A DNA stretch of 14,057 nucleotides. Origin: a virus. Below are positions 5,557 to 9,265 of the stretch, piece after piece. The DNA lies in the UHGV virus genome UHGV-0369625. The stretch is one strand, 5' to 3'. Each line of letters starts with the position of its first letter. Within the stretch, counting starts at the first letter, position 1. The translations under genes were made by a program, and so were the position numbers. The notes under the pieces were generated by a model that saw only the letters and a program-made list of their open reading frames with translations, was not told the origin of the DNA and made no database searches.

Positions 5557-6309
5557 TTATCTCGTCACCTTCCTCAATTGCGCTTCCGCGTATGCTTCTT
5601 CCTGCCAGCACTTTGTTACCAGTTTACCAATGACGTCCGCATACCCCTTATACCACTGATAATCGGTCAGGTCTGGTACCAGCTTCTGGACATGACGTCG
5701 TGCCAGCGTGGTCGGTAAACGACTAAACCGGTTTCCATTACAACGCCCACAAATCTTATATACCGGTACGCCATGAAACCGGGTTCTTTTTTCATCCAGA
5801 ACAATCCCTTTACCCTTACACCCTCTGCACGCTGTGCTGACTTCGCCCTTACCATGGCAATGCTGACATAGTTCCTTCACCCATTCTTCCTTGATTACAG
5901 ATTCCCCGCGTCTGTAGTGTTTCACCACTTCGCGCAATACATTATAAAATCCCGTACCTGAACAATGCTCACAGCGAGCCTTACTTGCCGCAGACCTGGA
6001 GTAATCAGCAAAGGCAAAACTCACGAGGTAAGGAATAATCTGTAACCGGATTTCTTCACTCAATTTGTTCAATGTCGGGTTATCCAGTGCCATCGCGTAA
6101 TTTAGCAGGCCTTCAATCGCAAACTGAGGGTCCTGAACACCAACTTTTGCCAGAAATAAGGCCAACCCAAGTGGTGCTTTCGACTGCACCATCCCCTGCG
6201 CTGCCATTACATCCGTAATTGTTAAACAACCGGTGCCTGTCGCTGGAGCGTCATCGCTCAATTTTGGAGATTTTGGGGAGTAATATTTTGGTAAGGCTTC
6301 AAGGTTCAT
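5557..6309 (-). CDS. quuQ: Late-gene antiterminator Q (phage 82/21-type Q family), 250 aa
   Basis: ATG 6307-6309 with GGAG SD; the track start at 6339 is TTG. Cys/His-rich zinc-binding region (CEHCSGTG...CQHCHGKG...CRGCKGKG...CGRCNG). Matches Qin QuuQ as recalled. Confidence 0.9.
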   Translation of the reverse strand: MNLEALPKYYSPKSPKLSDDAPATGTGCLTITDVMAAQGMVQSKAPLGLALFLAKVGVQDPQFAIEGLLNYAMALDNPTLNKLSEEIRLQIIPYLVSFAFADYSRSAASKARCEHCSGTGFYNVLREVVKHYRRGESVIKEEWVKELCQHCHGKGEVSTACRGCKGKGIVLDEKRTRFHGVPVYKICGRCNGNRFSRLPTTLARRHVQKLVPDLTDYQWYKGYADVIGKLVTKCWQEEAYAEAQLRKVTR

Positions 6310-6322
6310 GCTCGTTCTCCAC

Positions 6323-7372
6323 TTACGCCAGTACGCCAATTGCCAGCGCGCGATCGATAAAACGAAATATCAGCTCCAGTTGGGAGCCATACTTCTCTTC
6401 AAATGCCACTGTATCCGTATGCAGCTCGTTGTGATGCTTTCTGCACAAAGGCAACACAAAGAGATCATGTGCTTTTGTTCCCATTCCGCCCTGCCCGTGA
6501 CCAATCAGATGATGCGGATCGTCGGCTGGCATACCGCAGCAAGCACACGGCTGTGTCTTAACCCAACGTGTGTATTTCTCCTTAACCCAGCGGCGACGTT
6601 TAGGCAGCTTCATGAAAGATTCCGGAGACTCTGGATCAACGGTGATGCTTACCACCGTCTTTTCCTGTGGTGGTTTTTGTTGCTGGTAGGCGTAAGGCAA
6701 CGGTGCAAGATTTTTTGTGCGTTGTTTCAATATGCTGGTGGCGGTCTGCTCTCCCGGTACGATGTCGCTTTCGCGGTACACCGAGCAGATTTTTTCCGCT
6801 GGTAATCCCAGCGAACGACGCGATACAGCCTCAGGTAGTGCATCCACCACCTGATTGCAGACCGCCCACCAGGATAATTCAGCCAAAGATAATTCCCGCT
6901 CCTGCGTACCGCTTATTGCGTGACGGATGACGTCAATCACCCATGCTGTCAGATTTTGTTGAGCAAGCAGATCCAGTGATTCCGATGTCTGGTCACGCAG
7001 TTGGTTGTCGCAGTGCCAACACAACACCATTGCGCCGGTACCATAACGGTGAATGACTGTTTCAGAGTGATGGTAATCGCCATTAGGCCACTGGCAGGAT
7101 GTAACATGACGTAATAGCCAGTCAGACAATGCGCCAACGCCGCCAGCAGCACGAATCACCCGTTCGTTACTAAAAAACGGCAGCAATGTTTTGTCTTCCA
7201 CCAGCGGCTGGCGAACGGCAGGAACGACTCCGGATGGCAGATTACGCATGCTTTTTGGTTCCGGTTCCACCAGCACTCGAGGATTATGAAATATCTGTAT
7301 GGATTCACGGCCCGGCTTAAGGACCACCAGCCCAAGCTCAGGCACCAGAACAGGTCTAAGTAATACCCGCAC
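6323..7372 (-). CDS. ydfU: DUF968-family prophage protein (YdfU-like) with C-terminal HNH-like motif, 349 aa
   Basis: GTG 7370-7372 preceded by GGAGG SD; the track start GTG 7411 has no SD. C-terminus CACCG...DPHHL...HH..ELH resembles a His-Me finger. Confidence 0.75.
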   Translation of the reverse strand: MRVLLRPVLVPELGLVVLKPGRESIQIFHNPRVLVEPEPKSMRNLPSGVVPAVRQPLVEDKTLLPFFSNERVIRAAGGVGALSDWLLRHVTSCQWPNGDYHHSETVIHRYGTGAMVLCWHCDNQLRDQTSESLDLLAQQNLTAWVIDVIRHAISGTQERELSLAELSWWAVCNQVVDALPEAVSRRSLGLPAEKICSVYRESDIVPGEQTATSILKQRTKNLAPLPYAYQQQKPPQEKTVVSITVDPESPESFMKLPKRRRWVKEKYTRWVKTQPCACCGMPADDPHHLIGHGQGGMGTKAHDLFVLPLCRKHHNELHTDTVAFEEKYGSQLELIFRFIDRALAIGVLA

Positions 7373-7373
7373 G

Positions 7374-7652
7374 TTACCTCCAGATCCGTTGCTGGAAAGT
7401 GCGGGACGCACGTGGTGGGCGTTCGGAGTAAGGCAATCTGACTGAGATTATCCAGTGACGGTAGTCGAGGCTAAGGGCTTTCTTAACCTCGTATCCGCGC
7501 CTGCGGTAACACTGAATTATCCATTCAGCCTGCTCTTCAGTGCATGGAGGGTGTTGGAACCATTCAGACTTGAATGCGTGAGAATACCGCTCGTGCGTGC
7601 AGACAAGAACGGGCGAATTATCAGAATTGTAATATTTTACGTTGCGTGCCAT
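7374..7652 (-). CDS. Hypothetical protein, 92 aa; stop abuts the ydfU start
   Basis: ATG 7650-7652 with GGAGAA SD; stop TAA 7374-7376 is 1 nt from the ydfU GTG. No family recognised. Confidence 0.65.
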   Translation of the reverse strand: MARNVKYYNSDNSPVLVCTHERYSHAFKSEWFQHPPCTEEQAEWIIQCYRRRGYEVKKALSLDYRHWIISVRLPYSERPPRASRTFQQRIWR

Positions 7653-7718
7653 CGGTTTTCTCCGGTGGCACGGTGTTACTCAGCGGGAGTTCAGCCCCGC
7701 GCAAGATTGTAGATGAGT

Positions 7719-7970
7719 TTATTCTTCTGCAAAAGCTGAAAAGCCTGCTTTTATTCCGATCTCTTTCAGTGCCTGTAATGAAGTGACAAACTCACCTTCG
7801 CGCAAGATAAATCCGTCCGTGACTCGAGCATCCACAAAATTAATTAACGCAGCCCCATTCTTTCGCAAACACAGAATGCGGTAATGACTAACAATGTTTC
7901 CATTTTCAACGCACACAGCATAGAGGCCATCTTCACAAAAAATTTTACGCAGTTCTTCGATGTTCATCAT
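7719..7970 (-). CDS. rem: Rem-like small prophage protein, 83 aa
   Basis: ATG 7968-7970 (tandem MM) with GGAAGGA SD; sequence matches Qin Rem as recalled. Confidence 0.75.
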   Translation of the reverse strand: MMNIEELRKIFCEDGLYAVCVENGNIVSHYRILCLRKNGAALINFVDARVTDGFILREGEFVTSLQALKEIGIKAGFSAFAEE

Positions 7971-8085: not shown

Positions 8086-8118
8086 GAAAATAAAAACAAA
8101 AACCCGCCGAAGCGGGTT
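8086..8118 (-). terminator. Rho-independent terminator downstream of hok (stem AACCCGC, loop CGAA, stem GCGGGTT), T-run on the minus strand
   Basis: Plus strand reads aataaaaacaaaaaAACCCGCcgaaGCGGGTTaag; about 70 nt downstream of the hok stop. Confidence 0.7.
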
Positions 8119-8578: not shown

Positions 8579-9265
8579 TCACTCCTTCTCTTCTTTTCCG
8601 TAGTGGAGTTGGCCAATTTTGATAAGAGGGCGTCCCTGAGATTTGCGGTGTAGATTGGTATCGCGCAGAGAATACACACAGCCACAATATTCCTGCTGAT
8701 AGAATTTTTCGCGCTTGCTGATTTCAATCATACGGGACGAGCCGCCCTGCTTGCGCCAGTTATAATCCCAGTACACCATACCCGGATAATGCGCAACAGC
8801 TCGCCGCCCACACTCGTTAACCTGCTGCATATTTTTCCAGCGTGAAATGCCCAGTGAACTGCTGATCACACTGAAACCATTTTCAGCAGCGTACAACGCT
8901 GTCCGCTCAAAACGCATGTCAAAACACATGGTACAACGGATCCCCCTCTCAGGCTCCCATTCCATTCCTTTGGCACGTTCAAACCAGTTGTCTGTGTCGT
9001 AATCAGCATCAATAAATGGCACGCCGTGTTGTTCAGCAAAGCGAATATTTTCATCCTTACGAATTAAATACTCTTTCTGAGGATGAATGTTCGGGTTGTA
9101 GAAAAAGATGGTATAGTCGATTCCCGAGGCCTGAAGCGCCTCCATCACTTCACCGGAACATGGAGCACAGCAAGAGTGCAGTAGTAGTTTGTTTGCCCCG
9201 TTTGGGAGCTCCAATTTAGGCCGTTTGAAATCAGCAATAGTCATAAATATTTTTATTGGGGTCAT
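8579..9265 (-). CDS. QueH-like epoxyqueuosine reductase (DUF208 family), 228 aa
   Basis: Motifs [29 protein letters not shown] and EYCGCVYSL match what I recall as QueH hallmarks. ATG 9263-9265 (no clear SD); alternative ATG 9244. Stop TGA 8579-8581. Confidence 0.75.

Follow-up and report, generated by a model that had tools for sequence, protein, structure and literature searches.

In the 14,057-nucleotide stretch of viral DNA analysed here (UHGV virus genome UHGV-0369625, referred to as the window), a 92-codon open reading frame (ORF), which we call orf92, lies on the minus strand directly ahead of ydfU, the gene of a 349-residue DUF968 protein. The two are separate, probably translationally coupled genes and not the pieces of a broken one. 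The best overall explanation, to which we assign a probability of roughly 0.8, is that orf92 and ydfU are coupled but separate genes, that YdfU acts as an HNH nuclease in the slot preceding the antiterminator gene Q, and that Orf92 serves as an accessory factor. An initial annotation of the window had proposed either a tightly coupled two-gene unit or a longer gene split by a frameshift. Hereof the coupling is supported by an invariant junction and a family-wide gene-end cassette, while neither the split gene nor the idea of an exclusive two-gene unit could be upheld.

The 3' end of orf92 reads ...CGG ATC TGG AGG TAA, and its last two sense codons contain the Shine-Dalgarno (SD) sequence GGAGG of ydfU, so that stop codon, a single spacer nucleotide and the GTG start of ydfU follow one another directly (Table 1). 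For comparison, 221 related loci were gathered from IMG/VR and E. coli genomes, in 215 of which orf92 could be delimited. All 215 show the junction GGAGG-TAA-N-GTG, with N being C in 212 and T in 3 loci. The NCBI annotation pipeline PGAP calls exactly these two coding sequences both in the identical sequence of E. coli strain 746 and in K-12. The spacing of one nucleotide between stop and start, as originally noted, is thus confirmed, and the two SD sequences, GGAGAA ahead of orf92 and GGAGG within its 3' end, are found where they had been placed. Near-abutting stop and start codons, an SD inside the upstream ORF and conservation of this arrangement in homologues are the geometry of a translationally coupled pair. 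Mechanistically, ribosomes that end orf92 translation at UAA would sit on the ydfU SD (UGG AGG) and could restart at the GUG one base downstream. Such reinitiation would tie the synthesis of YdfU to the translation of orf92.

Sequence variation in the small ORF shows that orf92 is a real protein-coding gene, annotated by PGAP as 'hypothetical protein'. Among 88 unique sequences, codons 27-92 show many synonymous and few non-synonymous differences, the ratio of non-synonymous to synonymous substitution rates (dN/dS) being 0.12 for this part (0.11 for codons 27-75 and 0.10 for codons 76-92) and 0.22 overall. Constraint is relaxed in codons 1-26 (dN/dS = 0.62); this N-terminal extension evolves nearly neutrally and stays in frame, giving total lengths of 90 or 92 codons only. 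For ydfU, a dN/dS of 0.16 (60 unique sequences) likewise indicates purifying selection. The frames of orf92 and ydfU overlap, both being open for about 75 nucleotides (nt; 7373-7447), and variation in this overlap is synonymous in the orf92 frame. Codon 89 of orf92, for example, occurs as CGC, CGG, CGT or CGA, changes that would be amino-acid replacements if read in the ydfU frame. The extension of that frame upstream is thus not coding. Two longer versions of ydfU were rejected on the basis of this pattern: a start at GTG 7411, which would yield a protein of 362 amino acids (aa) and overlap orf92, is unsupported, and the 375-aa calls of some databases conflict with overlap variation that is synonymous only in the orf92 frame.

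The product of orf92, a small basic protein, belongs to the family phrog_1212 (E = 1.8e-35), its residues 27-92 matching positions 1-66 of the 66-position profile. Searching 1.84 billion representative proteins with a profile confirmed this membership and retrieved only 75 relatives. They are found in Salmonella, Citrobacter, Klebsiella, Kluyvera, Raoultella, Phytobacter, Rahnella, Yersinia, Plesiomonas and Edwardsiella as well as in the isolated phages mEp237, mEp460, Gifsy-1, Gifsy-2, SPN3UB, phiES15, Edno5, PY54 and N15 ('orf QD1'), and are annotated as hypothetical in every case. The typical relative is a free-standing protein of 66 aa, which starts at the equivalent of residue 27/28 and spans residues 27/28-92 of Orf92. 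The Escherichia Qin-type version has gained a variable, predicted disordered tail of 26 residues at its N-terminus. In line with this, AlphaFold2 assigns residues 1-21 a predicted local distance difference test score (pLDDT) below 50. The core, which retains 30-50% identity across genera, is modelled with a pLDDT of about 86 as a beta-alpha-beta-beta fold, with strands at residues 27-33, 55-60 and 67-74 and helices at 39-51 and, C-terminally, at 84-90.

In each lineage the phrog_1212 gene belongs to a nin-like region, where it lies between the genes for replication and Q or, in N15-like phages, beside Q. The gene that follows it differs. In E. coli and Klebsiella it is DUF968, in Phytobacter, Citrobacter and phage Chris1 RusA and then DUF968, in mEp237 and phiES15 YbcO/DUF1364 and then RusA, in Gifsy-2 and Edno5 NinG, in N15 and Salmonella an RNase_T/DnaQ-like exonuclease, in Rahnella a MazG-like gene, and in Yersinia, Plesiomonas and an Enterobacter phage an uncharacterised gene. 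A nuclease of one of five families immediately follows in 309 of 317 classifiable loci (DUF968 218, NinG 62, YbcO 20, RusA 5, RNase_T 4, other 8), a sample that is biased because the loci were collected by similarity to a few queries. The NinG proteins encoded downstream of orf92 homologues match the NinG profile with E = 1e-74 to 1e-82. Hence, orf92 and ydfU do not form an exclusive two-gene unit, as genes for RusA, YbcO, a DnaQ-like exonuclease and non-nuclease proteins are found behind the small gene as well. In the Plesiomonas prophage, the protein downstream of the small-gene homologue (L232:3700-4152, 151 aa, without a Pfam match) displays a C-x2-C-G ... H-x-S-H ... C-x2-C-H pattern, which by eye suggests another, unclassified HNH-type nuclease in the slot.

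Throughout the family the small protein ends in [I/M/V]-W-[R/G/E], encoded by TGG followed by AGG, GGG, GAG or AGA and then the stop codon. With this ending, the final two codons invariably supply the SD for whatever gene comes next, and that gene starts anywhere from a 1-nt overlap to 4 nt downstream. The coupling cassette is thus a property of the 3' end of the small gene, with interchangeable genes behind it. Its presence across the family ahead of interchangeable genes supports translational coupling.

These observations also bear on the notion that a frameshift has divided one longer gene into orf92 and ydfU and that the copy present here is a pseudogene. Two points could be cited in its favor, namely the overlap of the two open frames and the existence of one database protein, P0122 (438 aa), that joins both ORFs. 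This protein is a singleton and the sole joined form among the best-scoring 120 of 1571 DUF968 clusters. It carries an internal Met at the place where the GTG should read Val, and looks like an artefact or a rare deletion. Comparing the junction in homologues for fused frames, as had been suggested initially, hence yielded no credible orf92-DUF968 fusion in the 141 small-protein clusters or in those 120 DUF968 clusters. The two proteins instead form separate size classes: all 141 clusters of orf92 homologues comprise proteins of about 90-92 aa, while the large DUF968 clusters contain proteins of 348-352 aa, those with thousands of members being 349 aa long. Further arguments against a split gene are the stop and 1-nt spacer that are kept at every delimitable locus, the purifying selection on the orf92 core, the independent 66-aa relatives that are followed by NinG, YbcO, RusA or exonuclease genes, and the DUF968 genes of Citrobacter and Phytobacter, which are preceded by rusA instead of the small gene. 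We therefore regard a frameshift-split gene as extremely improbable. Practically no credence can be given to a programmed variant either, in which a +1 ribosomal frameshift at AGG-UAA-C would produce an Orf92-YdfU fusion in the manner of E. coli prfB (release factor 2). The region does superficially resemble the prfB frameshift site, with an SD-like GGAGG immediately 5' of the stop codon, a C after it and the rare codon AGG. However, the GGAGG is not set a few nt upstream of the putative shift codon but overlaps it, AGG in the P-site re-pairs poorly in the +1 frame (GGU), and ydfU possesses its own in-frame GTG at a canonical distance from the SD. Moreover, the same cassette stands ahead of unrelated genes whose starts range from overlapping it by 1 nt to lying at +4 nt, and thus in different relative frames.

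Coupling of two separate genes leaves the question of whether the Orf92 peptide itself matters or whether orf92 is only a translated leader, the act of its translation controlling ydfU while the peptide is functionless. The double use of the last codons as SD and the weak GTG start downstream would suit a leader. The same is true of the reduced synonymous rate in the tail of orf92 (dS 0.20 compared to 0.75 in the core) and of a possible SD-sequestering structure: minimum-free-energy folding of 7430-7330 gives a 14-bp hairpin over the SD and GTG of ydfU. Such a hairpin, if it forms, would fit the lower synonymous rate of the tail and would tie ydfU initiation to the ribosomes unwinding it. Shuffle controls do not support it, since the 101-nt region is not significantly more stable than its shuffled counterparts (z = -0.37) and the SD is occluded no more strongly in 14 representatives of the family than after shuffling of the sequence upstream (Fisher p = 0.056). 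A peptide without function is furthermore difficult to reconcile with a core dN/dS of 0.11 and with a confidently predicted fold that is conserved across genera at the identities given above. A pure leader role is thus very unlikely.

Turning to the coupled downstream gene, full-length YdfU matches the Pfam family DUF968 (PF06147) with 257.4 bits (cut-off 27.8, E = 8.6e-77), the entire profile (positions 1-171) aligning with its C-terminal half. The HNH-like motif that had been noticed at its C-terminus, CACCG...DPHHLIGHG...LCRKHHNELH, corresponds to residues 276-318. A profile search restricted to the C-terminal 97 residues, one of the checks proposed at the outset, places HNHc_6 above threshold (28.7 bits, cut-off 26.6, E = 1.2e-6), whereas RecA_dep_nuc is matched with E = 8e-5 at a score below the family cut-off. 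YdfU also matches PHROG 96, which is named 'HNH endonuclease'. In an alignment of nine sequences, C276, D284, D285, H287, H288, C310, H314 and H318 are invariant across genera, and C279 is kept in eight, the exception being the Citrobacter homologue. The CxxC ... Cxx[C/H] pattern of a structural zinc site is present at the sequence level as C276-x2-C279 and C310-x2-H313. At position 313 (6434-6436) most homologues have His (CRKHH), and one E. coli/E. albertii clade has Cys (CRKCH), a switch as expected of a zinc ligand. Position 315, the Asn of H-N-H, varies between N, T, D and R, while D303 shows no variation and lies close to the D-N of McrA in the alignment. The conserved Asn is absent from many His-Me families (PMC5714182). 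When Klebsiella, Citrobacter and Phytobacter homologues are included in the profile, it aligns in register with the HNH motif of McrA, though not significantly (E = 0.42). The AlphaFold2 model of full-length YdfU is poor, owing to a shallow alignment (mean pLDDT 46.5), and is reliable only for residues 270-349; a Foldseek search with this model returned HNH proteins as top matches, none of them significant. In summary of this part of the protein, profile matches and motif conservation identify the C-terminus of YdfU as a predicted His-Me (HNH) finger.

YdfU would accordingly be a two-domain protein, whose C-terminal 90 residues probably constitute a zinc-stabilised His-Me nuclease. The most constrained part is located elsewhere, in an N-terminal Cys/His region (residues 61-140) in which C93, H101, C118, H120 and C121 are invariant across genera and which has no match in Pfam or the PDB. 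It may be a degenerate second HNH-like domain, but its similarity to the C-terminal HNH domain is not significant (BLASTP E = 0.66, hhalign E = 0.079). No experimental report or biochemistry on YdfU was found in the literature, and the protein is still part of the y-ome listing.

The nuclease assignment agrees with earlier work. Jablonska et al. 2017 united DUF968 and DUF1364 as His-Me group 7, naming YdfU of Qin and YbcO of DLP12 (PDB 3g27), noted the RusA and Q neighbours and proposed a role in recombination like that of NinG (PMC5714182). YdfU of the window is 97-98% identical to K-12 YdfU and shares with this group the beta-beta-alpha-Me motif and the RusA/Q neighbourhood. It does not differ from it in kind, and what is added here is the conserved N-terminal Cys/His domain outside Pfam and the H/C switch. 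HNH fusions in DUF968-type proteins have been discussed by Curtis et al. 2014 (PMC4118853). Two relatives of the C-terminal domain are linked to phage recombination, namely Ref of phage P1, a RecA-dependent HNH nuclease (PF16786, PDB 3plw) whose profile is the RecA_dep_nuc match mentioned above, and the Listeria/Staphylococcus Orf-HNH proteins (PF16784, HNHc_6; PMC4118853). The Orf-like N-terminal domain of the latter was, however, not detected in YdfU.

The position of a nuclease-like gene immediately upstream of Q, where lambda has NinG/Rap, was likewise recognised correctly: in Gifsy-2 and Edno5 the small gene, complete with its coupling cassette, has NinG directly behind it. In lambda, NinG/Rap (PF05766), a structure-specific endonuclease from the ninR region, is like YdfU encoded just before Q and belongs to the His-Me finger superfamily. 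NinG comprises about 200 aa, whereas YdfU has 349 aa and an extra N-terminal domain, and no match of YdfU to the NinG profile was obtained at E <= 1 or <= 10. YdfU is thus a positional analogue of NinG/Rap and not a member of its family. It fills the nuclease slot before Q that is held by NinG/Rap, YbcO or RusA in other lambdoid phages, and would most likely cut branched or damaged DNA in phage recombination and replication. A small ORF in the position of orf92 relative to this slot also exists in lambda and P22, where ninF lies directly upstream of ninG. Orf92 lacks homology to NinF, and one Enterobacter phage carries both a NinF gene and a phrog_1212 gene. Termination-reinitiation coupling in phage and bacterial operons has the same features as the orf92-ydfU junction, a 1-nt stop-start spacing and an SD in the upstream ORF, and nin-region neighbours are similarly packed, e.g. 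with rusA/DUF968 overlaps of 4-16 nt. The present case departs from such ordinary coupling only in that the last two codons (W-R/G/E), which form the SD, are conserved family-wide ahead of interchangeable genes.

As to the function of Orf92, we consider an accessory DNA- or protein-binding factor probable. No match was obtained in Pfam, NCBIfam or PADLOC, including a scan of 21 diverse family members, the PADLOC models for anti-phage defence and toxin-antitoxin systems did not match Orf92, YdfU or Rem, and a literature search by orf92 identifiers and coordinates returned nothing relevant. A more specific assumption would be that Orf92 serves the nuclease encoded behind it as a dedicated partner, e.g. 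as a specificity subunit, chaperone, inhibitor or immunity factor in a two-protein nuclease system. The nuclease that follows immediately in nearly all sampled loci, the fixed stoichiometry favored by coupled translation and the make-up of the protein (folded core, Pro-rich linker, conserved peptide at the C-terminus), as is typical of docking motifs, are consistent with such a partnership. Yet the unrelated folds of the nucleases in question (His-Me finger, RusA, DnaQ-like) speak against a specific interface, some homologues precede MazG-like or uncharacterised genes, the synteny may be no more than the trace of a mosaic boundary conserved in the nin region, and a PADLOC or toxin-antitoxin-type match is missing. 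A dedicated two-protein system thus appears rather unlikely. More speculative still, and to be taken as a long shot, is the picture of the phrog_1212 protein as an accessory factor that serves the lambdoid nuclease slot universally. It would be translated together with the nuclease behind it, be this DUF968, YbcO, NinG, RusA or DnaQ-like, and its C-terminal peptide [YFW]QQ[RK][IM]W would tether it to a shared target, e.g. a host hub of replication or recombination (beta-clamp, SSB, RecA), or to DNA, thereby directing or restraining the nuclease. The peptide loosely resembles Q-x-x-[LIM]-[FW] clamp-binding motifs.

Since both the HNH assignment and the recombination hypothesis have been published (PMC5714182) and most of the findings, essentially all, are already contained in annotation pipelines and the literature, the importance of the present results reaches little beyond annotation, and tight coupling is normal in phage operons. 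Our additions are modest: orf92 as a genuine conserved gene, the family-wide cassette with the SD in the last codons, and the constrained, unclassified N-terminal domain of YdfU. The small-protein family provides a clean example of a conserved gene-end cassette behind which different nuclease genes are swapped in. This fits the picture of modular exchange among lambdoid phages and offers a rationale for asking whether the small protein works with these nucleases.

Table 1. Features of the orf92-ydfU region and of the adjoining genes (positions in the window).
Feature	Position	Strand	Basis
SD GGAGAA of orf92, 5 nt ahead of ATG	7658..7663	-	read from sequence
orf92, 92 codons; ATG 7652-7650, TAA 7376-7374	7374..7652	-	PGAP coding sequence; phrog_1212
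orf92 codons 1-26, N-terminal extension of the Escherichia Qin-type version, variable, predicted disordered	7575..7652	-	dN/dS, pLDDT
orf92 codons 27-92, conserved core, Pro-rich linker, C-terminal motif [YFW]QQ[RK][IM]W[RG]	7377..7574	-	AlphaFold2, alignments
SD GGAGG of ydfU, within the last two sense codons of orf92, TGG AGG	7377..7381	-	sequence; arrangement family-wide
Coupling junction TAA-C-GTG: orf92 stop, 1-nt spacer (C 7373), ydfU start	7370..7376	-	sequence
Predicted RNA hairpin pairing ydfU SD and GTG with orf92 codons 83-87 (hypothesis only)	7366..7405	-	minimum-free-energy fold
ydfU, 349 aa, DUF968 protein, intact; GTG 7372-7370, TAA 6325-6323	6323..7372	-	PGAP coding sequence
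N-terminal Cys/His domain, YdfU residues 61-140, most constrained part	6953..7192	-	dN/dS = 0.05
Predicted His-Me finger (HNH) nuclease domain, YdfU residues 262-349	6326..6589	-	HNHc_6, RecA_dep_nuc; pLDDT 70-92
Motif C276-x2-C279 ... D284 D285 P H287 H288 ... C310-x2-H313 H314 ... H318; predicted Zn ligands and catalytic His	6419..6547	-	
rem, 83-aa ORF, upstream gene in the orf92-ydfU transcription unit	7719..7970	-	'protein Rem' in K-12 and strain 746
ydfT, Q-type antiterminator; ATG 13 nt past ydfU stop	5557..6309	-	Pfam Antiterm E = 3.5e-54; PGAP coordinates

The minus-strand gene order is hokD, rem, orf92, ydfU and ydfT (antiterminator Q), and the region, an ordinary one, makes up the distal end of the early-right (nin-like) operon in a lambdoid cryptic prophage of the Qin type from E. 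coli. Positions 6200-7800 match E. coli strain 746 at 100% identity and the cryptic prophage Qin in K-12 MG1655 at 97.8%, and sequence related to this stretch is present in 4921 of 5426 complete E. coli genomes. In the curated K-12 reference NC_000913.3, orf92 is unannotated and an empty gap of 346 bp separates rem and ydfU. The ORF is intact in K-12, where 7374-7652 of the window corresponds to about 1644306-1644584, and PGAP calls it in other assemblies. With its 92 codons clearly under purifying selection, the gene in this gap deserves a name. A terminator 'upstream of ydfU' is listed among the strongest Rho-dependent terminators in E. coli (PMC9160355). The interval upstream of ydfU (7373-7720) consists mostly of orf92 coding sequence, and orf92 may thus be poorly translated in uninduced K-12.

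Further observations concern the two flanks. On several related E. coli contigs, which reach sizes of up to 4.7 Mb, 607-aa fusions of YdfU with the Q antiterminator occur (P0123-P0125; Pfam DUF968 and Antiterm), indicating that an indel bridges the 13-nt ydfU-ydfT spacer in some strains. On the opposite side, a strong intrinsic-terminator-like hairpin, AACCCGCTTCGGCGGGTT followed by a T-run, is located between hokD and rem (8101-8118, minus strand). Downstream of hokD, the window carries a gene for the epoxyqueuosine reductase QueH (8579-9265, minus strand; Pfam E = 1e-65), where the Qin prophage of K-12 has relBE. Strain 746 contains an extra KwaB-like gene pair between hokD and queH, and this interval resembles a variable cargo or defence hotspot.

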